Of a stretch of 64,000 nt of DNA, positions 2,703 to 44,345 are shown one piece after another (the first letter of the stretch is position 1; each line of letters begins with the position of its first letter). A model generated the notes under the pieces. It was not told the origin of the DNA. It searched no databases and worked only from the letters and a program-made list of their open reading frames with translations. The position numbers and the translations under genes are program-made. The DNA is from Rickettsiales bacterium (GTDB lineage: Bacteria; Pseudomonadota; Alphaproteobacteria; Rickettsiales; UBA1997): assembly GCA_031289855.1 (NCBI GenBank), contig JAITOR010000075.1:7702-71701 (forward strand). Direction: 5' to 3'.

Positions 2703-3104
2703 ATGAGAATAATTAGAATAATAGAAAAACATTTTTCTTTAATATTGTTTATTCTTCTTGTGGTTTTATGTGTTTTGTTTGTGATAAGAGCCTTTATTCT
2801 TTTAATAATACATTTATTGGCATATTTGCACATTATAAACAGAGCAAAAAGGATAAAGAAGAGAAGAAATACAAGGGATGTGGCCACGATATTGAATGAA
2901 AAACTTGTGGTTAAAAAGGCGGAAGAATCTATTGTTGGATTTGCAAAACCGGTGGGCTTTTGGAGTAGTTTATTGTTGGGTGGCAAAATTACAGAGGTGT
3001 TTGATAAGGCTAAGAATGCGTCATTGAAAGATGATAGCAAAAGTTTTTGGGCCAGCGTTGCAGAGGCACAAGCAAAGGAAAATGCAAAAAATAAGAAAGG
3101 TTAA
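2703..3104 (+). CDS. hypothetical membrane protein (133 aa)
   Basis: The ATG lies 3 nt after the gmk stop. The N-terminal part is hydrophobic (LILFILLVVLCVLFVIRAFILLIIHLLAYL) and is followed by a basic, K-rich soluble tail. Preferred over the antisense ORF 2585..3040, which overlaps the gmk 3' end. Confidence 0.5.
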   Translation: MRIIRIIEKHFSLILFILLVVLCVLFVIRAFILLIIHLLAYLHIINRAKRIKKRRNTRDVATILNEKLVVKKAEESIVGFAKPVGFWSSLLLGGKITEVFDKAKNASLKDDSKSFWASVAEAQAKENAKNKKG

Positions 3105-3116
3105 TTAATTATCTAA

Positions 3117-3209
3117 TCACCATCCATTTTTGATAGCACCTCCCATCTCTTTGATATCTCCTCCTCCCAAAAAAGTTAGAGTAACTGCAATGAACAAAGA
3201 CACACTCAC
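3117..3209 (-). CDS. candidate small membrane peptide (30 aa) with an entericidin-like C-terminal motif
   Basis: Not in the ORF track (under 60 aa). A GTG-initiated ORF encodes (M)SVSLFIAVTLTFLGGGDIKEMGGAIKNGW. An internal ATG preceded by GGGAGGAGGAG would give only MGGAIKNGW. The GDIKEMGGAI segment resembles the EDIKHLGNSI core of the entericidin A/B family as I recall it, but there is no lipobox Cys. Confidence 0.25.
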   Translation of the reverse strand: MSVSLFIAVTLTFLGGGDIKEMGGAIKNGW

Positions 3210-3252
3210 TCAATTAAAAACACAATTAAAATAAAATTTATTTTTTTTTATA

Positions 3253-3284
3253 TACTTCCATACTTTACAGTTATGATATATAAT
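3253..3284 (+). promoter_or_regulatory. cassette copy A: TACTTCCAT-N17-TATAAT
   Basis: The sequence is tacTTCCATactttacagttatgataTATAAT. It is followed 6 nt later by an ATG at 3291. Confidence 0.45.
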
Positions 3285-3290
3285 ATAAAC

Positions 3291-3332
3291 ATGATTATAA
3301 TGTATATGTTGGATATGTGTTGCATATATTAA
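3291..3332 (+). other. candidate leaderless mini-ORF MIIMYMLDMCCIY
   Basis: The ATG lies 6 nt after the -10 of cassette copy A. It shares TATAATATAAACATG and the ATGTGTTG (Met-Cys-Cys) string with the luxS leader. Confidence 0.25.
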
Positions 3333-3363
3333 TTATTGATTGTTTTAAAAACAAAACTCACTT

Positions 3364-3398
3364 AATAAACAAAACCCTGTATTACTATAATACAAGGC
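3364..3398 (-). terminator. intrinsic terminator after the 340-aa gene
   Basis: The hairpin ccttgtatta/taatacagg (3376..3397, one bulge) is followed on the minus strand by gttttgtttatt. Confidence 0.55.
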
Positions 3399-3421
3399 TT
3401 TGTCAAATCACAAACAACTTC

Positions 3422-4444
3422 TCATCTGGGGGTGATGGTGGTGGTGGACGAAGATGCTGTTATTCTTGCTGCTAATGTTGCTCTATGGTCGTTTCGTGGT
3501 AAAAGCTTATCGGGTTGAATACCATCGAAAGGTTTAATACTATCAATACCATCACCACCTAAACATAAAGCCTTGATACACACAGATACATCTCTTCCCC
3601 CCTCAATATTTGCAATTACCTGATGAATCCAATCCTTATCACCACTATAATCGTCATTTTTCGCAACTTTTTTTGCATAATTGATAATTTCTTTAACTCC
3701 AATAGCCCCCTTGTTAAATTGGATATACTTTAGACGGAATTCACTAACTATGTCTTTTTTGACACTCATCTCCCCGTCATCTTTGTCGTCATCGTCACCG
3801 TCTCCTTCATCTCTAGCGGTTGTTCCATCTGCGGTTTTAGTAAAATTTCTAAGTCGTTTTAAGGTTTCCAATCTTAATACTGGGTTTACATTTATTTCCT
3901 TTATAGCAGTCATTTCTTGCGCAACTTCTTTGCTAATCTCTTCAAGTTTTTCACTTTTTTCTAAAACATTAGAATCCAATCCATCCAATAATTTTATGAA
4001 AGTATAATCTACTATTTTGTCAAAAACCTCCAGCGCTCTTAAATCAAAAACAATTTTGCCTTCCAACACCTCATCTGCCGCAGGTTGTCCGTCTGATGGC
4101 TCGCCATATTTAGCGAATGCCACTACATTCCTAAAAACTGTTTTTGCTTTTGCTACAAATTCTTTATTAATAGCATCAATCCTACCTTTTTCCTCTATTA
4201 TTTCAGGAGCAGCACCTGCTATTGCACCATCAGATCCCACTTGAACAAAAAGATTAAATTGAAAAGAATCTCTGTATCTTCCACCTCGTAAACCATTGAG
4301 AACTCCAATTTCATTATCAGTTAGTTCTTCACCCTTGGCATTTTTTTCATTAAGAATTTCTAAAAATGCCCTAAAGGGTATAAGTTTAAGTTTTCCATCA
4401 CTTGATGTCAAGTCCCTTGTTGTTTCATCTGCAGGCTCTGTCAT
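3422..4444 (-). CDS. hypothetical acidic protein (340 aa), no recognisable family
   Basis: A long ORF with no signal peptide. It has an acidic block DEGDGDDDDKDDGE and an S/T-rich C-terminus ITASSSTTTITPR. A terminator hairpin follows it. Confidence 0.6.
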   Translation of the reverse strand: MTEPADETTRDLTSSDGKLKLIPFRAFLEILNEKNAKGEELTDNEIGVLNGLRGGRYRDSFQFNLFVQVGSDGAIAGAAPEIIEEKGRIDAINKEFVAKAKTVFRNVVAFAKYGEPSDGQPAADEVLEGKIVFDLRALEVFDKIVDYTFIKLLDGLDSNVLEKSEKLEEISKEVAQEMTAIKEINVNPVLRLETLKRLRNFTKTADGTTARDEGDGDDDDKDDGEMSVKKDIVSEFRLKYIQFNKGAIGVKEIINYAKKVAKNDDYSGDKDWIHQVIANIEGGRDVSVCIKALCLGGDGIDSIKPFDGIQPDKLLPRNDHRATLAARITASSSTTTITPR

Positions 4445-4687
4445 AATTATTTCCTATAATTTATTAAACATAATCAATATTATCACAAAAAAAAAGCAAG
4501 TTTATTTGATTAATTATTAATATTATTTTTATTTATTTAATAATAATAATATTAGTGAAAGATAAACTCGTCATCTATAATGGATATAATATTAGAAAGT
4601 GTGATAATGAAAGTGATAAGGATAGGAATAACCAAAGAAGAATAGGGATAGAAGTATGATTAAAGGAATATAAAAATATTAAAATGG

Positions 4688-5488
4688 CTATTTACTCAAA
4701 TATTCATAAACCTCTTTTTTATTGTTGGCAAATCCCATTTTAACTATAAAATCACTAATATCTTTTACCCTCATAATTCCTTTTAAATTATCGTTTACAA
4801 GATTTATTTTTTCTTTATCAAAACTAACCTCACTCTCATTGTTTTTTAACAAAATAACAAATTCACCCCTAACTTTATCTTTATTTTCATTGTAATATTT
4901 CAAAACTTCACTAACCTTTCCATTTTTTATCTCTTCATACATTTTTGTAATCTCGCGACATACACAAATTTCAATGTTCCCTAAATTTTCAAAAATATCA
5001 TGCAAAGTAAATAAAATTCTTGCGGGACTTTCATATAAAATTATAGTTTCAGTTTTATACCTTAATTTCTGTAAATCTTTTTTGTTTTCTAAAAATCCCC
5101 AAAATAAAAATTTATCTGTTGGCATTCCACTCATAACCAATGAAGTTAAAACCGCGCTTGCCCCACAAATAGCAACAACTTTAATATTGTTTTTATGACA
5201 TTCGGCCACCAATTTATAACCAGGATCGCTGATTAAAGGCGTTCCTGCATCACTGACAAGTCCTACGTTTTTGCCTTCTTTTAATAATTTTATAATTCCA
5301 TTTCGCTCATTTTCATTCGAAAAATCATTGTAAACATGCAAAGATTTTTTTATTTCAAAATGTTGCAATAATTTGTCAGTAACTCTTGTATCTTCACAAA
5401 AAAGATAATCTATACCTTTTAAAATCTCTAATGCCCTTAAAGTAATGTCATTATAATTGCCAATTGGAGTTGAAATAATATGCAACAT
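4688..5488 (-). CDS. rsmI: 16S rRNA (cytidine1402-2'-O)-methyltransferase
   Basis: ORF 4688..5578. Start moved to MLHIISTPIGN (ATG 5488..5486), which overlaps the upstream stop as TAATG. It has the tetrapyrrole-methylase-type motifs TPIGNxxDITLRALEIL and CEDTRVT. Confidence 0.85.
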   Translation of the reverse strand: MLHIISTPIGNYNDITLRALEILKGIDYLFCEDTRVTDKLLQHFEIKKSLHVYNDFSNENERNGIIKLLKEGKNVGLVSDAGTPLISDPGYKLVAECHKNNIKVVAICGASAVLTSLVMSGMPTDKFLFWGFLENKKDLQKLRYKTETIILYESPARILFTLHDIFENLGNIEICVCREITKMYEEIKNGKVSEVLKYYNENKDKVRGEFVILLKNNESEVSFDKEKINLVNDNLKGIMRVKDISDFIVKMGFANNKKEVYEYLSK

Positions 5489-5868: not shown

Positions 5869-7032
5869 CTATTCACCACATTTTAACATAACAAAAGCAT
5901 CTTCCCTTATCACATCGCCTCCAACTCTTTTCGTGGCATAAAATTTAATGTATGGTTTCGCTGTATACGGATCTCGTAAAATTCTTATATCTTCCCTATC
6001 AACTATTTGATAATATTTGAAATTTCCAAATAATATCGCAGGAATACCAGTATTCAATGCCAACATATATGATGTTTGATACACTGGGGAACCAAGTATT
6101 GTATCGTCCTTACCTCCAAGCAAAGCAGGTTGCCACAAATAATTACCACTCACACTATCCTTCAACATCCTAACTTTTGAAACAGTTTCTCTTGTCATAA
6201 CAAAACTGGCACCACTTACATATTTTTGATTTAACGAATAATATAGGTTTATTACATTTTCTTGATTAAAATCAGTTGCGGAATTTGAGATTATTTCCTC
6301 TATTGGTCTTGTTAAAATACCAGTTGGTTGGTTGACACCATCGCCCCCACCATTCAAAAATGCTTCTTCCTCTCTTTGCAAAAATTGTTCAGCCAATCTA
6401 TCAGCAATGTAATTTTCAATGTTAATAAAGCCATCATCCAATAATTTTTGCGACACCTTTGGTTGAGCCACCAATTCTTGTGCTTTAATTGTTGTTTTTG
6501 ATATGGTGGAACCACTTGTTTCCATTCTATTTTCAATTTCTCCAACCCATGCAGCAGAAAAATTTACATCATCCACAATTTCTAATGCCGAAGAACCTAC
6601 ATTCTGTACAGAACAAATTCTTCTCATAAAGCAAGAATTCTCTAACTCTCCTGCTATAATTTTTGACATATTTGGACTCAATAAATATCCACCATAGGAA
6701 CCAGATATTGCAGTTGTTAAATCAAATTTCCTTTCTAGATTCATAAGTGGAGCATCTACACCTTTTTTGATGTAATTATCTAATGCGGTTTTATATTCCA
6801 CATTTTCTCTTGATTCACATTTGCTCTCAAAACTTGGTCTTGAATTTGATATTTCAAGTTTCTCAATCTTTAACTTTTGCTCTTCAAGAGTATTGTTTAT
6901 TTTTGACAATTCATCAAGCAATAATACATCAGCACCTCCCTTTTTCTCAATTTGTTTTAATCTTTCATCATTTACTTGTTTGTAATGCTCCCATGCATTA
7001 CCGATTTTCTCTAACTTGTCGTTAATTTCCAT
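5869..7032 (-). CDS. HK97-family phage/GTA major capsid protein (387 aa)
   Basis: An N-terminal coiled-coil delta/scaffold-like segment (MEINDKLEKIGNAWEHYKQVNDERLKQIEKKG...) is followed by a region of about 280 aa with the Phage_capsid (HK97) look. GGAG lies 5 nt upstream of the ATG. No neighbouring phage genes. Confidence 0.75.
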   Translation of the reverse strand: MEINDKLEKIGNAWEHYKQVNDERLKQIEKKGGADVLLLDELSKINNTLEEQKLKIEKLEISNSRPSFESKCESRENVEYKTALDNYIKKGVDAPLMNLERKFDLTTAISGSYGGYLLSPNMSKIIAGELENSCFMRRICSVQNVGSSALEIVDDVNFSAAWVGEIENRMETSGSTISKTTIKAQELVAQPKVSQKLLDDGFINIENYIADRLAEQFLQREEEAFLNGGGDGVNQPTGILTRPIEEIISNSATDFNQENVINLYYSLNQKYVSGASFVMTRETVSKVRMLKDSVSGNYLWQPALLGGKDDTILGSPVYQTSYMLALNTGIPAILFGNFKYYQIVDREDIRILRDPYTAKPYIKFYATKRVGGDVIREDAFVMLKCGE

Positions 7033-7123: not shown

Positions 7124-7152
7124 TTGCAAAGTGACAAATTATTTTATATAAT
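7124..7152 (+). promoter_or_regulatory. sigma70-type promoter of ftsI (TTGCAA-N17-TATAAT)
   Basis: The spacer is exactly 17 nt. The ATG at 7159 lies only 6 nt after the -10, which is leaderless geometry. Confidence 0.55.
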
Positions 7153-7158
7153 ATAAAT

Positions 7159-8781
7159 ATGAAAAGATATTCAATTAACAAAACTGATTATACATATTCA
7201 AGAAATAGGTTATTTTTTCTTGTTTTATGCGTTATTTTTTTGCTCTTTGTGTATGTGGGGAGAATTTTTTATTTATCGTGTTTTTATAAAAAAAATAATA
7301 TGGAACAAGAATATATTTTTACAAATACAAATATTATATCAAGGGATGCAATTAGAGTTGATATAGTTGATAAAAATGATGTTATTTTGGCAACTAATAT
7401 TAAATTGTATGATTTTTATTTAAATAAAGATTTAATAACAAACAATGAATCTACAATTGATATTATAGTTAAAATTTTTCCATTTTTAAATAAAGAAACT
7501 TTGTTAAAAAAAATTACAAACCATAAATCAAAGTTAATTTTGATTAAAAATGGCATAACAGAAAGTCAAAAAAATGAAATCAAAAAAACTATTTTTGGCT
7601 TTGAATTTATGGAAAGTTTAGTAAGAATATACCCACATCAAGAATTGTTTTCCCATATAATAGGTTTTACAAATAGCGATAAACATGGAATTGAAGGCCT
7701 TGAATTACAATATAACGATTATCTTGACAATAAGGATAATCCACCATTAAAACTCACTTTTGATAGTAGGATACAAGCAATTTTAAGGAAGCAATTATTG
7801 AAAGGTATGGAAAAATATAAGGCAAAGTCAATAATTGGCATTGTGGCAGAAGTAAAAACTGGAAATGTTTTGGCATTAGTGAACTTGCCAGACTTTAATC
7901 CAAATCAATTAAATGATGTAAAAAGGGATGTTATGTATAATAAAGTGACCTTTGGAGCATTTGAAATGGGCTCTATATTTAAAATATTTACAATTGCTAT
8001 GGCACTTGATGGAAACATAATTACGGAAAATGAGCAATTTGATTCTTCAAGTAAAATTGATATTGGAAAATATATAATAAAACAGGATTATTATAGCAAA
8101 AAAATGATAAATGCAAAAGAAATTTTACAAAAATCTTCAAACATTGGTGCCGCTCTTATTGGTTTAAAAGGTGGTGCAGATAATATGAAGCAATTTTATA
8201 AAAAAATAGGATTTTTTGATAAATTGCCAGTAAAATATCCATCATTGGCAATGCCACTTTATCCAAGGACTTGGCGGAAATCAAACACTATTACAACATC
8301 ATATGGATATGGAATGGCAGTTAGTCCGTTGCATATAATTATGGGTGTAAGTGGAATTGTGAATGAAGGAATTATGAATATTCCAAAGTTTGTGACGAGT
8401 GAAAAATATGAAAAAGTTGAAATCATTAGTCAAAAAACTTCAAAAATAATGCAAAACTATTTAAGAGATGTAGTGCAAAATGGAACTGGATTTAGAGCAA
8501 ATACACTCGGTTATTCTGTTGGTGGAAAAACTGGTTCTGCAAGGCTGTTAGGTAGAGGTGGGGAATATTTGGAAGGACAAATTATGGCAAATTTTGTGGG
8601 AATTTTTCCCATGAATAATCCGCATTATGTGGTGTATGTGATGGTTGAAAATCCGCAAGATAATAATTACAAAAAAAACATTGATATTGCAGCAAGTAAT
8701 GTAACTGCTCCCATTGTGTCGAAAATTATTGAAAACATAGCACCAATCCTGAATGTTGTCCCATATATTGAGGGATTGTAA
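7159..8781 (+). CDS. ftsI: peptidoglycan D,D-transpeptidase (class B PBP, FtsI/PBP2-like)
   Basis: It has an N-terminal TM anchor and the transpeptidase motifs SIFK (SxxK), SSN (SxN) and KTGS (KTG). Confidence 0.85.
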   Translation: MKRYSINKTDYTYSRNRLFFLVLCVIFLLFVYVGRIFYLSCFYKKNNMEQEYIFTNTNIISRDAIRVDIVDKNDVILATNIKLYDFYLNKDLITNNESTIDIIVKIFPFLNKETLLKKITNHKSKLILIKNGITESQKNEIKKTIFGFEFMESLVRIYPHQELFSHIIGFTNSDKHGIEGLELQYNDYLDNKDNPPLKLTFDSRIQAILRKQLLKGMEKYKAKSIIGIVAEVKTGNVLALVNLPDFNPNQLNDVKRDVMYNKVTFGAFEMGSIFKIFTIAMALDGNIITENEQFDSSSKIDIGKYIIKQDYYSKKMINAKEILQKSSNIGAALIGLKGGADNMKQFYKKIGFFDKLPVKYPSLAMPLYPRTWRKSNTITTSYGYGMAVSPLHIIMGVSGIVNEGIMNIPKFVTSEKYEKVEIISQKTSKIMQNYLRDVVQNGTGFRANTLGYSVGGKTGSARLLGRGGEYLEGQIMANFVGIFPMNNPHYVVYVMVENPQDNNYKKNIDIAASNVTAPIVSKIIENIAPILNVVPYIEGL

Positions 8782-9020: not shown

Positions 9021-9671
9021 TTATATGCCAATCAGTTCTTCAAAACTATCGATAATATGGCCAGGTTTTGTTTTTTCCATATCTTCTTTGGTGTAATATC
9101 CCCATGACACACCAATTGTTTTGATGCCAGCATTTTTACCACCATCTATATCAGCATCTGTGTCTCCAATTATGTAAGAATTATTCTTATCAAAATTCAA
9201 TTCTTCCAAAATTTCCAAAATCAAATCAGGAGCAGGCTTTGGATTTTTGTTCCTTAATTTCACATCATCCCTTGTTTTAAATGTTGTAAAATATTTTTCT
9301 AAATCATAGTGTTTTAAAATTTGCATAGTGGAATTTTTTTCCCTTGAAGTGCAAATCGCCAATGTATTTCCATCGTTATATAACTTTTCAATGGTTTCTT
9401 TTGTTTTGTCAAATAAATTTGGCACATATTCCATATTTTTAATTTTATTTGTAATAAAAATAAATGCTTTATCCATTATTTCTCTTTGTTTGTCCTTTTC
9501 TACATTCCAACCAAAGTCATATAAATCTGGATTAGAATAGCCATAGCAAACTAAATCTACATTTGGTGTTGGCAAAGAATTATTTTTAGAATATTCGATA
9601 ATTCCTCTTTTTACGATTGTTTTTGTATCTGCAATAGTGCCATCAAAGTCAAAAATATATAAATTCTTCAT
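9021..9671 (-). CDS. HAD-superfamily hydrolase (phosphatase)
   Basis: Motif I is DFDGTIADT, with a downstream Ser/Thr motif and the GDTDADIDGGKNAG motif. Confidence 0.75.
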   Translation of the reverse strand: MKNLYIFDFDGTIADTKTIVKRGIIEYSKNNSLPTPNVDLVCYGYSNPDLYDFGWNVEKDKQREIMDKAFIFITNKIKNMEYVPNLFDKTKETIEKLYNDGNTLAICTSREKNSTMQILKHYDLEKYFTTFKTRDDVKLRNKNPKPAPDLILEILEELNFDKNNSYIIGDTDADIDGGKNAGIKTIGVSWGYYTKEDMEKTKPGHIIDSFEELIGI

Positions 9672-9769
9672 ATTGTTGTTATTGTATGATTTTGATTGTT
9701 TAAGTCAAATAATTTTGTTTTTTCTATTCAACTTTAGTATTTTTTACTTATACAATTCAACTAAAAATA

Positions 9770-13226: not shown

Positions 13227-14303
13227 TCAAACATTTGCATTCGCTAATTTTCTAACTTCTTCGTCGGCTATTAATCCGTCAATAATTTCATCCAAATCAC
13301 CTTCATTTGTAATTTGGTCAATTTTATATAATGTTAAGTTTATCCTATGATCGGTTACTCTGCCCTGTGGATAATTATAGGTTCTAATCTTTTCACTTCT
13401 ATCACCGCTTCCAATTTGTTCCTTTCTATCTGCAGACCTTGCCTTATCTTTTTTGCTTCTTTCAATGTCATACAACCTTGCTCTTAAAACTTTCATTGCT
13501 TTTTCCATATTTTTATGTTGACTTCTTTCATCCTGCTGTTGAACCACAATACCTGTTGGTAAATGTGTTACCCTTACGGCACTATCTGTAGTATTTACGC
13601 ATTGCCCTCCTGGTCCACTACCTCTAAAAATATCAACCCTCAAATCTTTTTCTTCAATCCTTATATCCACATCTTCAACTTCCGGAAGTACAGCAACCGT
13701 TGTTGCTGATGTATGAACTCTACCCTTTTGCTCTGTTTCTGGCACTCTTTGAACCCTGTGAGCACCTGATTCGTATTTTAATTTTTTAAAAACATTTTGT
13801 CCTTTTATTGAAAATGTGGCATCTTTTACACCACCTAAATCTGTTTCGGCAAGTGCAATTATTTCAAATTTCCATCCTTGTTTTTCTGCATATCTTTGAT
13901 ACATTCTTAATAATACGGCACCAAAAAGTGAGGCCTCTTCACCTCCCGTTCCCGCTCTAATTTCAATGATTGCGTTTTTTTCATCATCCTCATCCTTTGA
14001 AAGTAACATAATTTCAATTCCTCTTCTTAACAATGGAACTTTTGCTCTTAATTCACCAATTTCATCTTCAACCACTTGTTTCATTTCATTATCCAAACCA
14101 CCAATCTTTATCATTTCCTCATCATCAGTAAGAGATTTATTGGCTTTTTGAAATTCTATAATTTTTTTCACCAAATCACTCAAATTTGATTGTTCTTTTG
14201 AGTATTTTACTATTTCTTCACCAGTAATTCCTTCCTGTTGTAGTTTTTGCCCCAAGTCATTATACTTGTTAACTATATCATTTAATTTATTTAAAAGAGT
14301 CAT
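13227..14303 (-). CDS. prfA: peptide chain release factor 1
   Basis: The GGQ motif ([16 protein letters not shown]) and an RF1-type PxT tripeptide ([13 protein letters not shown]) are both present. Confidence 0.95.
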
Positions 14304-14354
14304 AAAAGATTATTGAATATTTAAAATGTAAAATCAAATATTTAATTAATCTTC

Positions 14355-15308
14355 TTATTTTTGCATATCTTTTTCAATTTCCATTGCTGCAATCGCACCA
14401 TATCCAGCAGCAATTACCCCCTGTTTAAATTTTTTATTTACCACATCACCCACAGCATATACTCCATTAATATTGGTTTTTGCACCATCAGGTTGTGTTA
14501 CAATATAATCATTTTCATCCAATTGTAGATAAGTGTTTTTGAAAATTTTTGTTCCAGGTTCCCTTCCAATTGATATAAATACACCACTTAAATCGATTTG
14601 TTTTGTTTCATTGTTTTTTATATTTTTAATTTTGATACCACTAACTTTTGTGTCGCCAATTATTTCCTCTACTACATTTTCACCAACAATTTCTATATTC
14701 TTCGTATTCTTAATTTTTTCCAACATTTTGTCGCCCATTCTAAACTCATTTCGTCTATGTATTAAATACACTTTACTACATAAATGTGATAAATGTAAAG
14801 TTTCAGTGCCCGCTGAATTACCGCCGCCAACCACAGCAACATCTTTTCCTTTATGGAAATTTCCATCACAAACCGCACATGCTGAAACTCCACGACCTTT
14901 AAATTTTGTTTCACTTGCTATATTTAAATATTTTGCCTCTGCACCAGTGGCAATAACTATATAATTTGCCTCATAAATTTCATTATTTTCCGTTTTACAT
15001 TTAAAGGGTCGTTCATTAAAATTTATACTTACAATTTTTTCATAAAAAATCTCTGCACCTAATCGTTGTGTTTGTTGCATAATATTTGACATTAAATCGG
15101 CACCAAGTATACCATTTACAAACCCTGGATAATTTTCAACTTCAGTTGTAGTTATAAGTTGCCCTCCAATTTCTCCACCTGTAAAGAGGGCTACTTTTAA
15201 ATTATCTCTTGCTAAATATATTGCTGATGTATTACCAGCAGGTCCCGAACCTAATATTATAACATCATATTTATTTGTCATGTTTGAATTATGATTTGTT
15301 TTTAACAT
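14355..15308 (-). CDS. trxB: thioredoxin-disulfide reductase
   Basis: It has GSGPAG (FAD), the redox-active CAVCDG and GGGNSA (NADPH). The true start may be the internal MTNKYDVIILG at 15281. Confidence 0.9.
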   Translation of the reverse strand: MLKTNHNSNMTNKYDVIILGSGPAGNTSAIYLARDNLKVALFTGGEIGGQLITTTEVENYPGFVNGILGADLMSNIMQQTQRLGAEIFYEKIVSINFNERPFKCKTENNEIYEANYIVIATGAEAKYLNIASETKFKGRGVSACAVCDGNFHKGKDVAVVGGGNSAGTETLHLSHLCSKVYLIHRRNEFRMGDKMLEKIKNTKNIEIVGENVVEEIIGDTKVSGIKIKNIKNNETKQIDLSGVFISIGREPGTKIFKNTYLQLDENDYIVTQPDGAKTNINGVYAVGDVVNKKFKQGVIAAGYGAIAAMEIEKDMQK

Positions 15309-15321
15309 AAGTCAAAATTAT

Positions 15322-15351
15322 TTGACAAATATATATTTTACATGTTATAAT
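15322..15351 (+). promoter_or_regulatory. consensus sigma70 promoter (TTGACA-N18-TATAAT) of the luxS leader
   Basis: Both hexamers are perfect. The ATG of a 16-codon mini-ORF follows 6 nt after the -10. Confidence 0.6.
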
Positions 15352-15357
15352 ATAAAC

Positions 15358-15408
15358 ATGTTTAGTAAAAAAATAATTTCTGTTTGTATGTGTTGTGATA
15401 AGCAATGA
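15358..15408 (+). other. candidate leaderless leader peptide MFSKKIISVCMCCDKQ
   Basis: I read the ORF codon by codon from the sequence. It has three Cys and one Met in four consecutive codons (TGT ATG TGT TGT). The stop lies 31 nt before the leader terminator. Confidence 0.35.
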
Positions 15409-15438
15409 TATAGGCGGGTATGATTTTGTTTTTTGTTG

Positions 15439-15466
15439 TCATATCTTGCAAAAGATATGATTTTTT
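15439..15466 (+). terminator. intrinsic terminator/attenuator inside the luxS 5' leader
   Basis: A perfect 9-bp stem (tcatatctt/aagatatga) closes a GCAA tetraloop and is followed by a T6 run. The hairpin ends 9 nt before the luxS AAGGAG. Confidence 0.6.
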
Positions 15467-15484
15467 ATTAAAAAAAGGAGATTT

Positions 15485-15949
15485 ATGGTAAAACATATAG
15501 TAAAAAGTTTTAATTTAGACCACACAAAGGTCAAAGCACCTTTTATAAGATTGGCGGATGTAATAAAAACACCAAGTGGTAAAGATATAATCACAAAATT
15601 GGATTTGCGATTTACACAACCAAATAAGGAATTTTTGGATATGCCGTCAGCACATACTTTGGAACATTTGTTGGCAACATATTTAAGAGAAGGTAAAAAA
15701 TACAATATCATAGATTTATCTCCCATGGGTTGTCAAACTGGATTTTATATATCTTTATTTGATGAAATAAATTTAACAGAATTTAAGGAATATTTTATTT
15801 GGGGATTAAAAAAAGTATTAGAAACAATTGAAATACCGGGAGCCACTGAAATAGAATGCGGAAATTATAAAAGTCATTCATTGGAAGGGGCAAAAAAATT
15901 TGCAAAAAAAGTATTAGATAGCGAAATTGGAATAATGGAAACCTATTAA
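15485..15949 (+). CDS. luxS: S-ribosylhomocysteine lyase
   Basis: It begins SFNLDHTKVKAPFIRL, carries the metal-binding HTLEHL motif and has the expected size. AAGGAG lies 5 nt upstream of the ATG. Confidence 0.85.
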   Translation: MVKHIVKSFNLDHTKVKAPFIRLADVIKTPSGKDIITKLDLRFTQPNKEFLDMPSAHTLEHLLATYLREGKKYNIIDLSPMGCQTGFYISLFDEINLTEFKEYFIWGLKKVLETIEIPGATEIECGNYKSHSLEGAKKFAKKVLDSEIGIMETY

Positions 15950-16001: not shown

Positions 16002-16029
16002 TTGACAATTAAAAAATAATGTATATTAT
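16002..16029 (+). promoter_or_regulatory. sigma70-type promoter (TTGACA-N16-TATTAT) ahead of tRNA-Gly and tuf
   Basis: The hexamers and spacing were read from the sequence. It lies about 65 nt upstream of tRNA-Gly. Confidence 0.45.
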
Positions 16030-16094
16030 ATGAAATGTATATTTGTCGAACTACTCATCAATTGTGTAGGAGATAGTGTATAAACTTTATAGAA

Positions 16095-16168
<74 letters not shown>

Positions 16169-19599: not shown

Positions 19600-22500
19600 A
19601 TGTTTTTTAAAAAGTTTTTTTGTTCGTTATTATTGATTACCTTACTTGTCAGTTGCGAAGGTGCTAATTGCATTGATGCAAATGATTTTGGGGAGTTTGA
19701 CGTACATACAATGGCAATAGAATCACAAAAAACTTTATGTAAATGGGAAGAAACTGATACATCCGATGGAAACGGGGATTATGAAATTGAAAGATGTTTA
19801 AGAGATGCGAGTGGCGCAAGGAGTATTAGAAATCCAGATATAGATTGTACTATAACATTTAACGAGGGAACTTCTGGTTATGCAAAAGTAAAAGAAGCCT
19901 TAAAATCACAAAATATCACAAAAGGTTTTATGGAAAAATATTTTACTTTGAATAATGAAAGTCAGTGTGGAACGGATTATAAAAAATTATTGACCGCCTT
20001 TTATGCGGAAGGACTTGAGGACTGCATATCCACATGTGAAACAAAACATAAAGCATCAAATCCAGTGTCGGAAGATGTTTATGAACCTGAATGGAAGCCG
20101 GCAGATTTAATTTTAGAAGTTGGTAGAGAATTTTATATTAAAGCAACGGGTGAAATAGATTTGTTGGGAGAAAAGGAGCGAAGCGTTCAGTATCTTGCTG
20201 GTTCCATAAATATGAATAAAAAAACTACTATAAATACTATTTTTGCCATAAAAACTAATACTGATATGACGTTTTCTGGTAATTGGATTACAACAAAAAA
20301 CGGAGTTGTTGACAAAAATTATGGTGAGATTGATGGTAATCAACCAAATTTACAAAAAAGAATTGAATTTTTGAGAAGAGGTGTTATGTATTTACAACCA
20401 CTTCCCAGCGTTAAAATACAAGGTATGACCATAATTGGCGAAGTAAATGAGATAGGTTCTTATACCGGGCCAGATGTGGAATTAGATAAAACAAAAATTT
20501 CTTGTTTAGTGAATGAAAACTTACCTTATGATGGGTATCCTACCACTTGTAAAGTTGATTATGGAGTTGAAGAGTTACCTGATGATTTTTCTATAGCAGC
20601 ACTTACGGAATCTCAAAGAATAGCATTGGCAAATAATGAATTGTATAAGTTGGATCCTTTTATGTCAAAATCAAAGGCTGGATATGTATTGACGCCTGAC
20701 ATTATAGATTATATGACTAAAATGCCACTAAAAGGTTATAGTTGCGCAACAACATTTAATGCAAATTACGGAATTTATCGTAGAAATTGTGATGATGGAA
20801 AAATAGATAGAAGTATTGGATTTAATAATGGTTATTTAGTACCAAAAGCCTTTGTTTTTACAAATGAAACTCAGGGTGGAAATGATGATTATCAAATGGA
20901 TATAAATGGGTTGGTTTTTCCTGTAAAAATCATGGTAAGAGTTTATGGCGGAATAAGGGGAGAATGTAAAGTTGGTATAAAAATGCCAGCAGCATTAGGG
21001 GTAAACGATCTTGATCCTTCCAACGAAGTTGATGGATTTTACAAAGTTACTATTCCCGCTAATGATAAATGGCACTATATAAATGATATAAAAAACAAAC
21101 CAATAATATTTGGAAAAAATACATTTTTTACCATAAAAGAAACAACTGAAGGTAGAGTAAATGTAAGAAATGAAAATCAATATAATTTAGCTTTAAAAGT
21201 TGTGTCTCCAAGTTTTGATGAAGGTAATAGACCTCAGTGGACGGCTGCTCCTGGTGCTTCATTATATCCAAATACTTTTGTTGTGCCACCTATACCTTCA
21301 AAAGGCACGCCAAATGAAATTATTGACACAGAAAATCATCCAGCTCCTTGTGGCGAGGGTATGGTTGTTATGTTGATGCCACAAAATGAAATAGTGATAA
21401 AAGAAAGTGGATTTGTTTCAATCAAATCGTTTCTAAAAGACAAAATATATACTTGTAATGCCGCTGATGATGGAAGTGAAGTATTTTGTCAGGATGGTGC
21501 CAATGGTGGAGGTAATCCACCAATAAATAGAACATTTAATTTGAAATATACTATATTAAATCCAAATGTAAATGCATCCGCAACAACTTTTGCTGTTAAA
21601 TCTGAAAATTTTTATGAAAAATCAACCTCAGAAATTGTCGGCAGTTCAAATAAATATTATCCAAAGTTTAATGATTTAATGATACCAGTTTCAGCAATAG
21701 GTTCCGTGAGCACTACCACATGGAGTAGCAAATTTTTTGTTAGAAAAGGACAGGTCATTAGATTTGATGAAACCAGTTGGTTTGGCATTGAAGGATCCAA
21801 TGGAGATGGTTTTGAAGTAAAAGAAAAATTTTTAAAGTATGATAATTTTAATATCAAAAAAAACATAGGAGAAGGTTTAATAATGCATATTGAGAAAAGA
21901 CCATCTTTTTTATGCACAGGCGAAGCCGAAGAATCAATATTCAATTCATCTTGCCAAAAGATTAAAAAAGATGATGGAACTGTTGATTGCAGGGTTCCTT
22001 ATTCTCAATATTGTTCCACAATGAATTCACAGGCAGAAGTAGATAGATATTGTCCGCTCGGTTGTTATAAAGTGGAGGTTGGTGGCGGTGGAGAAGCAGA
22101 GCATAAAGTGGAAATAAATGAAGGATGGGGAATTGCTTTATTGAAAGGCGATAGTACAATCAAAAATCAATCATTTTATGTGGATAATAATGAGAAGGAA
22201 TCTAACAATTGCTCTTATCCTCCTGAGTCATTACCTGAAAGTTTTGAAGATCCAATGAGTGTACAAAAATGTATAGAATGTAGAAATTATATAGAAAGTA
22301 ATCCGGACGCTTCAATTGAATTGGTGAATAAGGTATCTTTAACTCAATGTTATGATTTAGAAAATTATACAGGAAGCATCAAGGTTTTAGAAAATAAAAA
22401 TCCCTTTATAAATAGTGAAACAGGAGAGGGTGATTATAATAAAAAGACATTTGATTTATTGGGTGTAAAAAAATTAAATAGTATATTTTCGCAAGATGCA

Positions 22501-25500
22501 AAATATGGAAACCTTGAAGGCTCATCCGTTGACTCTCAATATCAACAAAGCGATGGAACTTATACAAAGTTTATTTATAATTCACCAACTGAATTAAAAA
22601 CAGAAGAACCAAAAATAATTAAATTTTTAACTCTAAACATTGATGATAATTTGGATTTTTCTCCTTCATTTGCAGAGGATATTGGAAGATACAAAATTAC
22701 ACTTATGGAAGGTGATAAATTTATGAATGGAAAACAACTTTCTGTACTTATAGCTCACAAAGGTTGGGATAAAAAAAATTTTAGTCAACAATGTGAAACT
22801 GGTTTTTGTGTTAAACAATATGTTGTAAAATATGACACAAGTAAAGAAAGTGAAGGAGGTTTGGAACCTAATACAAATTATGGTAAAGAATTAAGCGATG
22901 TAAATGATTATGAATTTGATTCATTTGGAGATCTTGTAAGTAAAGCCAAAATAAGTGAAAAAAAACTCATTTTAACATCTATAAAAAATGGACTAACATC
23001 TTTTGATTTAGTTGAACCAAAAGAATATGAAGATTTAAGAATATATTTTAAAGTTATTGATAGATTGCAATACGCTCCAAAGGAAACATTTAATGATGAT
23101 TGTCCTTTAAATACCATAGCAGAATATGAAACACGTTATAGTTGTACAGGCGCAACATATGATGAATTAAAAACCATTACATGTGTTTCGACAATTAATA
23201 ATGTAAGTGAAACAATCAGTGCTTGCCCCATTAGTGCCACCGATACAGCCTGTTCAAAGACGAGTGCGGGTTCATATATTACACCACCATATAGCATTAA
23301 AGTAAAAGTTGGTTGTAATCATGGCTTATATTATAATAATAATGGTGGTTATTCAGTGAAAATACAATCTCCAAAAGTTTTCACAAGTTTAAATTCCGTA
23401 ACCGATATGGATAGCGCTATAAAAACCAATGTTTTGTCATGGGGGGTTACAAAAATTCAAGGTTTCACAATTAGAAGATTGCTAAATCCTTTTATGGAAG
23501 TTATGGAAGGAATAAATATGGGATTACTGAATTTTAGGGGAGGATTTGAACCTTGTGTGAAAGAAATTGGAGAAACTGTGTCTTCAAAATGCACCTATTA
23601 CAATCCAAAAACAGATATTTTCGATCCACAATTTGGTGCAGGTTGCACATACGATCAACCAAATTGCTTTATAACATGCAACCTAATAAATGAAAGCGAT
23701 CCAGGATATGCTGGTAAATGTAAAATTGTGAATGATAATGGTGGTTATATTAAAAACTTTTATTCAAGAGTTATATTGGATTCGCAATTTCATGCAGTAG
23801 TAAGAATTTTATTAACTTTAATGATGACATTTTTGGGTTTATATCATTTGATAGGTATGTCAGAAATAACAAGTAAAGAGATGCTTACAAGAATTACAAA
23901 GATTGGAATAATTTATTTATTTATAGGGGAAACTGGATGGTTTTATTACAATAGATTTATCGTTCAATTTTTTGTAAGAGGTGCCGATTATTTGTCTTAT
24001 GCAGTGGCAGGTGCATTTGAGGAGACTCCAGGACTTACAAGAGAATTCACAAAGGGAATCTTTCTTGATAAAACGGTATTATTTGGTGCCACCGATAGAA
24101 ATTTAGCATTAATATTTTCAGCTGAAGTAAATTACAAAATATTAGGTCTATTGTTTACAAGTTATCTCGGCTGGTTATATGTAATATTATTATATTCGGC
24201 TCTCATAAACTATGTTTTTGCCTCACTTAATGCTTTGGTTTTGTTTATGATGTCAAAATTTTTGCTGATGGTAATGTTGACATTTGGTCCAATATTCTTT
24301 GTGCTATTGATTTTTGAAAAAACAAAGACTGCATTTGACAAATGGGTAATGGCACTTGTGGGACATGTGGTGGAGCAAGTATCTTTAATGGTTGGATTAT
24401 CATTATTTAATATGTTGGTTTATAATTTTATAAAATTTGTATTGAATTTTAGAGTATGTTGGACCCAAGTGTGGATTGTTGAACTTCCATTATTAGGTAG
24501 TATAAAACTATTTAATTTTTGGAGAGCAACCACTGGTACCACAACCGTTACAACGGCAATGAATGCAATGCCAGGATTATTTAGAGTATTGATTATATAT
24601 ATCATTGCAGATTTAATGAAAGGATTTATAGAATTGGTGAGAAATTTTTCCAACGATATTGCAAAATCTGGTTTAAAATTAGGAGATAGGGTTGGTGGAA
24701 TTTTAGAAGAAGTTAACAGATATAAAGAGGGGGATGATGGTATAAAAGATTCTTTCACAAAAGGATTAAATGCCAAAAGAGATTCATTCTTTAAGAAGAT
24801 GGGATACCAGACAGAAGAAGAGGAAATGAAAGAACAAAGTGATGAAAAGAAAAATAATATAAAAATAAGACAGGGTGAAAATGCTGGAAAAGAGGCAAGA
24901 AATGATCTTGCCGCAAAGGCACATATAGAATCAACAAAAAAGGCAAAAGAATCTGCTGAAAAATTTGTAAATAATAAAGGAGATGCTGCTAAAAATAAAC
25001 ATCTTGAAGAAAAAGGTCAAGAGGCAAGAGAAGTGGCTGAAAATGCATTTAAATCTAAAAAAAATAACAAAAAATTGTCTCCAGAGGAACTTGAAAAAGG
25101 AGCAAGAGAAGAGGGAGATAAGGCCGAAAAAGAAGCAAAAGAAAATGCAGACAATATTAAGGAAGCAGAAAGTAAGGCAACAGAAGCAAAAGAGAAAGCA
25201 CAAAAAGATGTGACAGGTATAAAAGCAGCCGAAAAAGAAGCATATAAATCTTCATATAACGAAATGGCGAGCACAGAAAAACTTGATGAAGCTTACAAAA
25301 ATGCATTTACAGCAAAAGCCGGGGCGGATAATTGGGGCAAAGAGGCAAGCACAAAAGCTGATAGTGTATTTGGTTTCATTGCATCAAAGGCATGGCATGC
25401 CGCAAGAGATGGCAAAGCAAGCACAAAAGCTGATAGTAGCACAATAGATAAACAAAATGAGATGACAAAAGTTGTTAAAAAAGCAAAGGATAAGGACGAT

Positions 25501-26343
25501 AAAAAGGAATTTGATAAAAAACATGATGAAAAATTAAAAGAGGAAGGTCATGGATTTTTAGCAAGAAGATGGGCCATGAGAAAAAATGCTCTTACGGGTG
25601 GTAGAAAACATAGTGGAGTTGGTATAACGCCATTAGGAAAAACCACAAGTAATTATAGAGATGCAGCGCTTAAGGAACAAAATGAAAAGAAAAATAAAGA
25701 TAAAGAAATGCTTGAATACAGAAATGAAATAGCACAAGAATCAAGACAAAAGAAAATTGAATCTGACAGAGAACTTGAGAACCACAAAAAAACAGGGGAA
25801 TATAAAGAAGATTTAAGGGATGAAACAAATAAATTACAAAAAGAATGGATGAAGGAAAATAGTTTTACTTCGTATGATAAATTTATAAAAAATGGAACTG
25901 TTGAACAGAAAAAAGCATATGGAAAACTTGGAGAAAAGGCAAAAAAGAATGTTGAAAGTAAATATCTAAAAAAGAGAGCAGAGGCGAAAGCTGCTGAAGA
26001 AAAAGATGCATCTGCAACAGCATCAGAAGAGGCAACACCAAAAAAAACGGAAACAGAAGAGGCAACACTAAAATCAGAGGAGGAGGCAACATCAAAAAAA
26101 ACGGAAACAGAAGAGGCAACACCACCTGAAGCAGAAACAGGTGCTGAAGCCAATGATGCAACACAACCAGAGATACCGGAAGTTCCATCGGAAGTACTTC
26201 CTCAGCCTTTAGAGGGGGAGGCTATACCACCACCTAAAACGGAAATATCAGCAAAAAGAAGAAAAAAGGCATCACATCGCGGAAGAGCAACAATTCCGGA
26301 TGGTTCACCTGAACCAATGGATGAACCGGAGGAAACTGAATGA
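19600..26343 (+). CDS. giant (2,247 aa) lipoprotein with a VirB6/TrbL-like polytopic membrane core
   Basis: The lipobox is LLVSC, with Cys at aa 19. A Cys-rich soluble region of about 1,375 aa follows. A cluster of hydrophobic helices spans about aa 1396-1672 and contains TFGPIFFVLLIFEKTKTAFDKWVMALVGHVV. That segment parallels the VirB6 segment AIGPLILVGYIFDRTRDIAAKWIGQLITYGL of A. tumefaciens as I recall it. A K/E/A-rich low-complexity tail of about 575 aa carries short tandem repeats. Confidence 0.6.
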   Translation: MFFKKFFCSLLLITLLVSCEGANCIDANDFGEFDVHTMAIESQKTLCKWEETDTSDGNGDYEIERCLRDASGARSIRNPDIDCTITFNEGTSGYAKVKEALKSQNITKGFMEKYFTLNNESQCGTDYKKLLTAFYAEGLEDCISTCETKHKASNPVSEDVYEPEWKPADLILEVGREFYIKATGEIDLLGEKERSVQYLAGSINMNKKTTINTIFAIKTNTDMTFSGNWITTKNGVVDKNYGEIDGNQPNLQKRIEFLRRGVMYLQPLPSVKIQGMTIIGEVNEIGSYTGPDVELDKTKISCLVNENLPYDGYPTTCKVDYGVEELPDDFSIAALTESQRIALANNELYKLDPFMSKSKAGYVLTPDIIDYMTKMPLKGYSCATTFNANYGIYRRNCDDGKIDRSIGFNNGYLVPKAFVFTNETQGGNDDYQMDINGLVFPVKIMVRVYGGIRGECKVGIKMPAALGVNDLDPSNEVDGFYKVTIPANDKWHYINDIKNKPIIFGKNTFFTIKETTEGRVNVRNENQYNLALKVVSPSFDEGNRPQWTAAPGASLYPNTFVVPPIPSKGTPNEIIDTENHPAPCGEGMVVMLMPQNEIVIKESGFVSIKSFLKDKIYTCNAADDGSEVFCQDGANGGGNPPINRTFNLKYTILNPNVNASATTFAVKSENFYEKSTSEIVGSSNKYYPKFNDLMIPVSAIGSVSTTTWSSKFFVRKGQVIRFDETSWFGIEGSNGDGFEVKEKFLKYDNFNIKKNIGEGLIMHIEKRPSFLCTGEAEESIFNSSCQKIKKDDGTVDCRVPYSQYCSTMNSQAEVDRYCPLGCYKVEVGGGGEAEHKVEINEGWGIALLKGDSTIKNQSFYVDNNEKESNNCSYPPESLPESFEDPMSVQKCIECRNYIESNPDASIELVNKVSLTQCYDLENYTGSIKVLENKNPFINSETGEGDYNKKTFDLLGVKKLNSIFSQDAKYGNLEGSSVDSQYQQSDGTYTKFIYNSPTELKTEEPKIIKFLTLNIDDNLDFSPSFAEDIGRYKITLMEGDKFMNGKQLSVLIAHKGWDKKNFSQQCETGFCVKQYVVKYDTSKESEGGLEPNTNYGKELSDVNDYEFDSFGDLVSKAKISEKKLILTSIKNGLTSFDLVEPKEYEDLRIYFKVIDRLQYAPKETFNDDCPLNTIAEYETRYSCTGATYDELKTITCVSTINNVSETISACPISATDTACSKTSAGSYITPPYSIKVKVGCNHGLYYNNNGGYSVKIQSPKVFTSLNSVTDMDSAIKTNVLSWGVTKIQGFTIRRLLNPFMEVMEGINMGLLNFRGGFEPCVKEIGETVSSKCTYYNPKTDIFDPQFGAGCTYDQPNCFITCNLINESDPGYAGKCKIVNDNGGYIKNFYSRVILDSQFHAVVRILLTLMMTFLGLYHLIGMSEITSKEMLTRITKIGIIYLFIGETGWFYYNRFIVQFFVRGADYLSYAVAGAFEETPGLTREFTKGIFLDKTVLFGATDRNLALIFSAEVNYKILGLLFTSYLGWLYVILLYSALINYVFASLNALVLFMMSKFLLMVMLTFGPIFFVLLIFEKTKTAFDKWVMALVGHVVEQVSLMVGLSLFNMLVYNFIKFVLNFRVCWTQVWIVELPLLGSIKLFNFWRATTGTTTVTTAMNAMPGLFRVLIIYIIADLMKGFIELVRNFSNDIAKSGLKLGDRVGGILEEVNRYKEGDDGIKDSFTKGLNAKRDSFFKKMGYQTEEEEMKEQSDEKKNNIKIRQGENAGKEARNDLAAKAHIESTKKAKESAEKFVNNKGDAAKNKHLEEKGQEAREVAENAFKSKKNNKKLSPEELEKGAREEGDKAEKEAKENADNIKEAESKATEAKEKAQKDVTGIKAAEKEAYKSSYNEMASTEKLDEAYKNAFTAKAGADNWGKEASTKADSVFGFIASKAWHAARDGKASTKADSSTIDKQNEMTKVVKKAKDKDDKKEFDKKHDEKLKEEGHGFLARRWAMRKNALTGGRKHSGVGITPLGKTTSNYRDAALKEQNEKKNKDKEMLEYRNEIAQESRQKKIESDRELENHKKTGEYKEDLRDETNKLQKEWMKENSFTSYDKFIKNGTVEQKKAYGKLGEKAKKNVESKYLKKRAEAKAAEEKDASATASEEATPKKTETEEATLKSEEEATSKKTETEEATPPEAETGAEANDATQPEIPEVPSEVLPQPLEGEAIPPPKTEISAKRRKKASHRGRATIPDGSPEPMDEPEETE
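26026..26121 (+). repeat. intragenic imperfect tandem repeats (EEAT modules) in the tail of the giant gene
   Basis: GAAGAGGCAACA or GAGGAGGCAACA occurs at 26026, 26056, 26080 and 26110. AAAAAAAACGGAAACAGAAGAGGCAACA occurs twice. Confidence 0.8.
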
Positions 26344-30944: not shown

Positions 30945-31814
30945 CTATCCTCTTGGGTGTATTTTTTTATAGACATCTAACAATCTTTTTTTATCAACCT
31001 TTGTGTATATTTGTGTTGTGGAAAGACTGCTATGTCCTAATAATTCCTGCAAACTTCTTAAATCAGCTCCGTTTTCCAATAAATGAGTCGCAAAAGAATG
31101 TCGTAGGGCATGTGGCGTAGTTGTTACGCTTAAATCAAGCATAGTTCTTGTTTTTTGTATAACCCGCTCAAACAAAGTTGCCGAATACTGCAAATTTCTT
31201 TTACTTCTAAACAAGTAATCGGTTGGCAGAATGGCAAATGGGCACTTTTTTACATAAATGTTTATTTTTTCAATAACAATCGGCAGCACAGGTAAATTTC
31301 GCATCTTGCCACCCTTTCCTTTGATAATAATCGTATTGTTAATATCACCCTTTTTTAAATTCAAAGCTTCGCTAATTCTCAAGCCGCATCCGTAAATCAA
31401 GGTGCAGATTGCAATATCACGAGCCACCTGCCATTCATCATTATGTATTTCGACCATCATTTCCATTATTTTTTCAATATTCATTACGTCAATTGCTTTT
31501 GGAATTCCCTTCTTTACCTTTGGATTTTTCACTACACTAATTATTGGATTATCAATCTTTTTGTGCTTTTTTAGGTATTTAAAGAAACTTTTCACACTGG
31601 ATAGATTTCTCGATAATGTGGCATTTTGCAAATTTAAATTCTTCTTACTGACCAACCAATTTCTAAAATCACTGTGTCGTAAGGTTTTTATATCTTTTGC
31701 ACCAATATAGTTAAAAAAATCGGTTAAATCCTCCCTATAGGCGGATACGGTGTGTTTTGAGTAATTTTTTTCACTTGCAATATACAACAAAAACTCATTT
31801 ATAAGTTTATTCAT
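30945..31814 (-). CDS. tyrosine recombinase, XerC/XerD family
   Basis: It has the ARDIAICTLIYGCGLRISEAL (Arg box) and HALRHSFATHLLENGADLRSLQELLGHSSLSTTQIYT (HxxR...Y) motifs. Confidence 0.88.
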   Translation of the reverse strand: MNKLINEFLLYIASEKNYSKHTVSAYREDLTDFFNYIGAKDIKTLRHSDFRNWLVSKKNLNLQNATLSRNLSSVKSFFKYLKKHKKIDNPIISVVKNPKVKKGIPKAIDVMNIEKIMEMMVEIHNDEWQVARDIAICTLIYGCGLRISEALNLKKGDINNTIIIKGKGGKMRNLPVLPIVIEKINIYVKKCPFAILPTDYLFRSKRNLQYSATLFERVIQKTRTMLDLSVTTTPHALRHSFATHLLENGADLRSLQELLGHSSLSTTQIYTKVDKKRLLDVYKKIHPRG

Positions 31815-37197: not shown

Positions 37198-37282
37198 ATC
37201 TTTATATGATAATACAAAATAAATATAAAGTCAATAAAATAAACTTGCTTTATTATAAAATATTTTTACTATAAACTATAAT

Positions 37283-44339: not shown

Positions 44340-44345
44340 ACGAGT

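Follow-up and report, generated by a model that had tools for sequence, protein, structure and literature searches.

Composition of the luxS leader

We analysed a 64,000-nucleotide (nt) stretch of contig JAITOR010000075.1 from a Rickettsiales bacterium (the whole stretch is hereafter called the window), focusing on the leader of luxS, the gene for S-ribosylhomocysteine lyase. The window has a GC content of 29%. luxS lies divergent from trxB, with prfA beyond trxB, and the intergenic region between trxB and luxS measures 176 nt. In a protein search, the LuxS of the window was 100% identical to a protein of a metagenome-assembled genome (MAG) labelled 'Rickettsiales bacterium'. The locus contains the following features (ORF, open reading frame):

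15322-15351, + strand: sigma-70-type promoter scoring 12/12, with −35 TTGACA (15322-15327), an 18-nt spacer and an extended −10 TGtTATAAT (15343-15351)
15358-15408, + strand: putative leaderless mini-ORF MFSKKIISVCMCCDKQ plus stop, 16 codons; the A of its ATG is the seventh base past the −10
15379-15418, + strand: hairpin 1 (helix 1:2), candidate anti-antiterminator and possible pause hairpin; −13.0 kcal/mol, z = −3.45, 0/200 shuffles as good
15385-15396, + strand: putative regulatory codons TGT ATG TGT TGT (Cys10, Met11, Cys12 and Cys13 of 16), read from the sequence
15414-15449, + strand: candidate antiterminator (helix 2:3), GCGGGUAUGAU (15414-15424) pairing with GUCAUAUC-U-UGC (15438-15449); 11 bp, −9.8 kcal/mol
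15438-15466, + strand: predicted intrinsic terminator (helix 3:4), a 10-bp stem (nine Watson-Crick pairs and one G-U), GCAA tetraloop and T6 (15461-15466); −10.7 kcal/mol
15475-15480, + strand: Shine-Dalgarno (SD) sequence of luxS, AAGGAG, 4 nt 5' of the ATG at 15485
15485-15949, + strand: luxS (154 amino acids (aa); Pfam LuxS, 4.8e-47), the putative regulated gene

All parts of the leader are arranged in functional order on the luxS sense strand, inside the 176-nt intergenic region. Only 18 nt separate the end of the T-tract from the luxS start codon, so luxS depends on the leader promoter. A preliminary description of the locus had pointed out the TTGACA-N18-TATAAT promoter, the ATG at 15358 opening MFSKKIISVCMCCDKQ, the consecutive TGT ATG TGT TGT codons, the 9-bp stem with its GCAA loop and T6 (15439-15466), and the luxS AAGGAG and ATG (15485) directly 3' of this hairpin; each was present where it had been placed.

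A near-ideal promoter and an apparently leaderless mini-ORF

The extended −10 element comprises a TG at 15343-15344 and TATAAT at 15346-15351, and the promoter is the sole 12/12 site with a TG across the 64-kb window. The mini-ORF follows at once (TATAAT ataaac ATG) and ends with a UGA at 15406-15408. With this spacing, the transcription start is predicted at or beside the A of ATG 15358, and the mini-ORF is putatively translated. Its final seven sense codons include three Cys codons, of which two stand in tandem. Cysteine accounts for 1.1% of the residues in the proteins of the window, and at least three Cys including a CC pair were found in only 3 of its 780 ATG-initiated ORFs of 10-30 codons.

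A scan of strong promoter-like sites revealed that the same leaderless geometry (−10, 5-9 nt, ATG) recurs at real genes in the window. The starts of this kind, with the promoters of prfA and trxB, are as follows:

7152-7161, ATG 7159: PBP gene, TATAAT ataaat ATG; first Pfam domain only from residue 63
44339-44348, ATG 44346: HAD hydrolase, TATAAT acgagt ATG; Pfam model starts within residues 4-7
9671-9686, − strand, ATG 9671: HAD hydrolase; Pfam model starts within residues 4-7
37197-37212, − strand, ATG 37197: further ORF; no Pfam match
14303-14314, − strand: prfA; −10 with a −35 box, 5-9 nt before the ATG
15281-15315, − strand: trxB promoter and start, TTGACT-16-CATAAT, tcaaac (6 nt), ATG 15281; Pyr_redox_2 model from residue 5

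Because their Pfam models begin at residues 4-7, we take the ATGs of trxB and of the two HAD hydrolases as true N-termini. Promoter and Pfam model both agree with ATG 15281, and the start of the longest trxB ORF (15308) is probably wrong. An SD-like motif precedes only ~17 of 58 ORFs in the window. Since real genes here start 5-9 nt past a −10, a leaderless start of the mini-ORF is credible in this genome. That many genes of this MAG appear to start at the predicted transcription start also matters for gene calling in such genomes.

Two further observations concern promoters near luxS. The −35 boxes of the divergent trxB and luxS-leader promoters stand back to back and form an inverted repeat, GTCAAA-N4-TTTGAC (15311-15326), which could simply reflect two promoters or double as the operator of a dimeric regulator. 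Downstream of luxS, the region 16002-16076 contains a promoter (TTGACA-16-TATTAT, 16002-16029) followed 5 nt on by a 13-codon ORF (ATG 16035, MYICRTTHQLCRR and stop), just 5' of tRNA-Gly(TCC) (16095-16168) and tuf.

The leader RNA can form three mutually exclusive helices

Helices 1:2, 2:3 and 3:4 of the leader are mutually exclusive, in a layout resembling that of trpL. The terminator (helix 3:4) consists of a perfect 9-bp hairpin, TCATATCTT-GCAA-AAGATATGA (15439-15460), followed by T6; a closing G-U pair extends its arms to 10 bp (15438-15447 with 15452-15461). Predicted to terminate transcription, it outranks every other hairpin-plus-T-run in the window. The remaining hairpin-plus-T-run matches have A/T-only stems of 7-8 bp, occur at chance frequency and are mostly intragenic. 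With only such stems elsewhere in the window, we rejected the idea that the hairpin is a typical terminator of this genome; as a single copy in the window, it is not a repeated element either.

Hairpin 1 pairs 15379-15389 with 15408-15418 and contains an inner stem of 15392-15396 with 15402-15406. It includes Cys10, Met11, Cys12, Cys13 and the stop codon of the mini-ORF, and its many G-U pairs mean that it forms on the + strand only. The leader as a whole folds on the + strand at −26.4 kcal/mol (z = −4.25, 0/200 shuffles as good). As the − strand reaches only −8.0 kcal/mol, this structure is G-U dependent and specific to the luxS-sense RNA.

The antiterminator (helix 2:3) encloses a U-rich loop of 13 nt and takes up 9 of the 10 bases of the terminator 5' arm together with part of the terminator loop. 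Its GCGGG (15414-15418) is shared with helix 1:2, so that hairpin 1 sequesters it. The stop codon lies 8 nt upstream of the antiterminator. With the terminator arm held fixed, 12 of 2,000 shuffles of 15409-15437 equalled the antiterminator in energy and pairing, and 28 of 4,000 natural 29-mers from the window did equally well (0.6-0.7%). The preliminary description had seen only a weak 5-bp antiterminator pairing (15407-15411 with 15441-15445); that pairing does appear in one alternative fold, but is surpassed by the 11-bp helix.

The luxS SD (15475-15480) lies outside the helices in the leader fold, and a longer fold shows weak pairing of U-rich with A-rich sequence near it. A second ORF, ORF2 (MILFFVVISCKRYDFLLKKGDLW, 15420-15491), starts in the antiterminator arm and crosses the terminator, and its TAA (15489-15491) overlaps luxS codons 2-3. 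Translation through ORF2 would melt the terminator. Its length is unremarkable, and only 1 nt separates its sole SD-like element (AGGCGGG) from its AUG; lacking a good SD, ORF2 is probably incidental.

A model of cysteine-dependent attenuation

We propose, with a probability of about 50%, that the leader is a ribosome-mediated transcription attenuator that senses Cys-tRNA and sets the level of luxS mRNA. The elements expected of such a device can be recognised in the sequence: a leader ORF at the predicted +1, a late Cys cluster (codons 10, 12 and 13), a terminator, and a candidate antiterminator with an upstream helix.

According to this model, the near-ideal promoter would start the transcript at or next to A15358, and a 70S ribosome would initiate on the 5'-terminal AUG and translate the 16 codons. 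With ample Cys-tRNA, the ribosome would reach the UGA (15406-15408) and cover ~15391-15420; its footprint, protecting to ~15418-15420, would mask the antiterminator GCGGG. The terminator (15438-15461 plus U6) would then form, and transcription would stop ~20 nt before the luxS start codon. In a masking simulation of this stop-codon footprint, the probability of the antiterminator was 0.000 and that of the terminator 0.999. Without translation, hairpin 1 (15379-15418) would sequester GCGGG, likewise leading to termination.

When Cys-tRNA is scarce, the ribosome would stall with Cys12 or Cys13 (15391-15396) in the A site and melt hairpin 1. If Cys13 (15394) occupied the A site, the ribosome would protect to ~15406-15409, and 15414-15424 would be available for pairing with 15438-15449 before synthesis of the terminator 3' arm. 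RNA polymerase would then read through and luxS would be expressed. With region 1 masked and no terminator 3' arm yet present, the lowest-energy fold is helix 2:3.

A response of the leader to cysteine is suggested by its codons. The preliminary description had left the sensed amino acid as Cys or Met; codon content points to Cys, and Met, with a single internal AUG in the leader, is the less likely candidate. Induction of luxS under Cys shortage makes sense because LuxS makes homocysteine, a precursor of Cys by reverse transsulfuration. LuxS, MccA and MccB of Helicobacter pylori are reported to supply cysteine by this route (PMC2923134). If the attenuator is real, luxS expression, and hence the release of autoinducer-2, would be a read-out of sulfur amino-acid status.

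Evidence against the attenuator and competing explanations

Several results weigh against the attenuator, from the locus itself, from related loci and from shuffled sequence. Pfam annotation (~55 ORFs) identified no cysteine or methionine pathway gene besides luxS in the window, canonical terminators are otherwise scarce there, and a run of only three Cys codons is short. At equilibrium, the complete terminator wins in every ribosome state (P ≥ 0.92; 0.92-0.98 in the stalled state). Its dominance in every masked state rules out switching by thermodynamics alone, so that any switch must be kinetic and co-transcriptional. Classical attenuators are likewise kinetic, and the 3:4 helix of Escherichia coli trp is also more stable than 2:3.

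Conservation offers no help. Among 5.8 billion protein clusters, the closest LuxS shares 85% identity. We read 11 contigs with relatives (12 loci, one a short duplicate; LuxS 73-85% identical), and 0 of 11 related luxS loci had a terminator together with a Cys-containing mini-ORF in the 200 nt upstream; no Rfam family was found in these loci either. A degenerate leader pattern had no match in metagenome contigs. GTDB species genomes yielded only LuxS of ≤56% identity, and a metagenome LuxS scan, swamped by the conserved MGCQTGFY motif, only LuxS of ≤54%. The preliminary description had taken orthologous luxS leaders without mini-ORF and hairpin as refuting an attenuator; all 11 loci lack such a leader, which on that criterion counts against the attenuator, but since none is syntenic, they do not represent orthologous leaders. 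The absence in relatives removes the support of conservation and does not disprove a function of the predicted leader.

The third body of adverse evidence concerns chance, and here the leader could be an accidental assembly in AT-rich DNA, with a real luxS promoter and a functionless ORF, hairpin and alternative pairings. A 12/12 promoter was present in 13 of 100 shuffled windows, and a perfect hairpin of at least 9 bp with a T-run arose in 15 of 40 (~38%; ~0.6 expected per window), so that each of the two alone is near chance at 29% GC. Open frames of 16 codons are common at this GC content, the leader is absent from all relatives examined, and every p value was computed after the hypothesis was formed. 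It is the joint presence of all parts, correctly ordered, in one 176-nt region that goes beyond chance. Independent rare features (the Cys ORF, 0.4%; the antiterminator, 0.6-0.7%; hairpin 1, 0/200) coincide in functional order within 110 nt, and a hairpin with a T6 tail only 18 nt from a start codon would lower luxS expression, so that selection should act against it unless it is used. We consider an accidental origin unlikely.

Alternatively, the leader could be an independent transcription unit of ~105-110 nt, producing a small RNA (sRNA) and/or a 16-aa Cys-rich micropeptide, with luxS expressed by constitutive leakage and cysteine not sensed. Promoter, short structured RNA and terminator are all present, leakage is plausible for a terminator of −10.7 kcal/mol with two G-C pairs, and no conservation argues for a regulatory design. 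Such a unit is nevertheless rather unlikely: the 18 nt between T-tract and start codon leave no room for a separate luxS promoter, no sRNA family matched in Rfam scans, and coincidence would have to account for the overlapping alternative helices and for the placement of the Cys codons within helix 1.

Three Rfam scans were made, one of the whole window at the gathering score and two, of 1.5 kb and of 161 nt, with E allowed up to 10. None of the three found a family in the leader, where only eukaryotic snoRNA and miRNA noise appeared (E above 2), and known riboswitch, T-box and sRNA families are ruled out by them. The T-box model had no match at E up to 10 in this leader of only ~110 nt. The riboswitch alternative of the preliminary description, which had called for such a scan, gained no support, with no SAM or SAH match. 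Antitermination by an unrecognised riboswitch (for example, for S-adenosylhomocysteine (SAH), S-ribosylhomocysteine or homocysteine), an RNA-binding protein or a tRNA, with the mini-ORF incidental, would agree with the strong, strand-specific structure (z = −4.25), with exclusive terminator and antiterminator helices as in riboswitch expression platforms and with the RNA control of luxS-pathway genes elsewhere (PMC2940859, PMC2566862), but is quite improbable given the lack of any Rfam match at E up to 10 (including SAM, SAH, T-box and preQ1), a hairpin 1 that is a simple G-U-rich 40-nt hairpin without multi-helix junction or pseudoknot, the failure to find homologues for covariation, and Cys codons, stop-codon spacing and a leaderless start that would all be coincidental.

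The attenuator reading thus stands as plausible and partly supported, a single example in which luxS is a new gene for a known type of control. Since it was first suggested in the preliminary description, it has gained leaderless precedents, an 11-bp antiterminator and a hairpin 1 over the Cys codons, and has lost ground through its absence at the 11 related luxS loci.

luxS relatives and genomic context

Cys-rich upstream mini-ORFs gave 7 matches among 89 luxS loci surveyed. None recurs in the 89 loci, and both candidates that were inspected more closely, the CCC ORF of Cutibacterium porci (L079) and the ORF of L083/L084, overlap genes upstream; we therefore rejected such a mini-ORF as a general feature of luxS. 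The surroundings of luxS differ among the relatives:

L086: luxS behind an EamA gene
L085: luxS behind prfA, same strand; LuxS 79% identical
L081, L083, L170: luxS with pfs
L087: Cys-type operon, Cys_Met_Meta_PP, PALP and luxS
L172: Cys-type operon, PALP, Hexapep/methyltransferase and luxS
L082, L088, L089: luxS behind unrelated DNA

LuxS of this distinct clade (62-85% identical; L081-L089 and L170-L172) occurs in MAGs that are AT-rich, carry the label Rickettsiales or Elusimicrobiota and come from a single sample set of the Joint Genome Institute (JGI). Alphaproteobacteria mostly rely on SAH hydrolase, and LuxS is uncommon among them; this suggests horizontal transfer.

Individual relatives show upstream elements of their own. 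L088 (225-245) and L089 (2443-2463) have a common motif, TTGATTTATTATTTATTT, ~40-60 nt 5' of luxS, while the DNA further upstream is unrelated; the motif may be a conserved promoter or operator. In L085 (1897-1914), an in-frame TGT TGT TGT GTT abuts the luxS ATG, without an SD or an in-frame upstream start; this GU-rich tract resembles the TGTTGT repeats of the window leader (15391-15396 and 15432-15437). L089 carries two copies of a ~70-nt repeat (aagtttttgttgagagatta...ttcaacagaagcttaa...attatcattaattagaaaaa) 5' of luxS (2130-2330), and the repeats are followed by a strong G+C-rich hairpin (2370-2393; −18.3 kcal/mol).

Elsewhere in the window, we found a two-piece transfer-messenger RNA of the alphaproteobacterial type and an ORF of 2247 aa (19600-26343), whose sole domain is TrbL/VirB6 (residues 1405-1609). 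Very large VirB6-like proteins are characteristic of the type IV secretion systems of Rickettsiales. The window also contains a major capsid gene of phage or gene-transfer agent (GTA) type and a tyrosine recombinase (5869-7032 and 30945-31814), and in L082 GTA tail genes adjoin luxS (2985-5453). The capsid, recombinase and tail genes may be GTA remnants.

Comparison with known attenuators

The leader resembles the trpL, hisL, pheL and thrL attenuators in its promoter-proximal ORF, its regulatory codons near the stop, the helices 1:2, 2:3 and 3:4, and the terminator with a U-tract. As in these classical systems, the stop codon sits shortly before region 2, and the mini-ORF has 16 codons, compared with 14 in E. 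coli trpL. It differs from them in that the mini-ORF lacks an SD and is apparently leaderless, that the gene is luxS rather than a biosynthetic operon, and that there is no conserved family. To our knowledge, Cys is not among the amino acids sensed by classical proteobacterial attenuators.

In Rhodobacterales, the uORFC-8-2 motif combines an upstream ORF (uORF) with tandem Cys codons and a terminator before cysS, with 145 aligned examples (PMC8632094). The motif is likewise alphaproteobacterial and has late tandem Cys codons (14-15 there, 12-13 here); its first stem holds the Cys codons, its second is the terminator stem with a U-run, and sensing of Cys-tRNA has been proposed. Compared by description only, uORFC-8-2 occurs exclusively before cysS in Rhodobacterales, whereas our leader precedes luxS in a Rickettsiales-like MAG of 29% GC and is one example.

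Leaderless polycysteine small ORFs (sORFs) attenuate cys operons in mycobacteria (10.1101/834739). The window leader shares with them a leaderless start (here judged by promoter geometry only), at least two consecutive Cys codons and a position as first cistron before a cysteine-related gene; we propose that here, too, a ribosome stalled at the Cys codons would remodel the RNA and relieve attenuation. In mycobacterial Ms5788A, the ribosome-binding site (RBS) is hidden and there is no terminator, whereas here a predicted terminator lies upstream of the SD; the phylum is Actinobacteria and there is no homology. Candidate Cys leader peptides before cys and cbs operons of Actinobacteria (PMC1262725) are also short ORFs with Cys runs near the stop, upstream of sulfur amino-acid genes. 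They have no recognisable terminators, unlike the luxS leader with its canonical terminator and antiterminator. In kind, uORFC-8-2 and these mycobacterial and actinobacterial leaders are its nearest described counterparts. By gene and by taxon, the leader can be assigned neither to uORFC-8-2 nor to the mycobacterial family.

The same physiological input is known from clostridia, where a Cys T-box increases LuxS-dependent homocysteine supply once Cys-tRNA becomes scarce. The LuxS/MccA/MccB route of Clostridium perfringens is controlled by Cys-specific T-boxes that act through premature termination (PMC2940859). Together with the Cys-type operons of the LuxS clade (L087 and L172), this precedent makes induction of luxS at low Cys-tRNA a known regulatory logic. 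Like the T-box of ubiG-mccBA-luxS (PMC2940859, PMC2566862), the leader is proposed to use uncharged tRNA-Cys as input and terminator read-through as output in the LuxS pathway. A T-box is a large conserved RNA that binds the tRNA directly, whereas no T-box was detected here and the sensor would be the translating ribosome.

A more specific claim, which we put forward only tentatively, is that LuxS expression is coupled to the charging of tRNA-Cys by a leaderless-uORF attenuator that works through an intrinsic terminator, and not by hiding the RBS, in a Rickettsiales-like bacterium with frequent leaderless genes. Overall, the finding is of modest significance, as this is a single example of a textbook class of mechanism from an uncultured organism. 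If true, the idea of a mycobacterial 'Cys ribulon' would extend to Alphaproteobacteria and to transcription termination; similar leaderless sensory uORFs would not be confined to Actinobacteria and would probably have gone unnoticed in reduced AT-rich genomes. As predicted, the leader joins a mycobacterial-type leaderless start with a Rhodobacterales-type terminator read-out at a different gene. If it is real, the same physiological logic would have evolved separately, as a Cys T-box in clostridia and as a minimal 110-nt leader-peptide device here.

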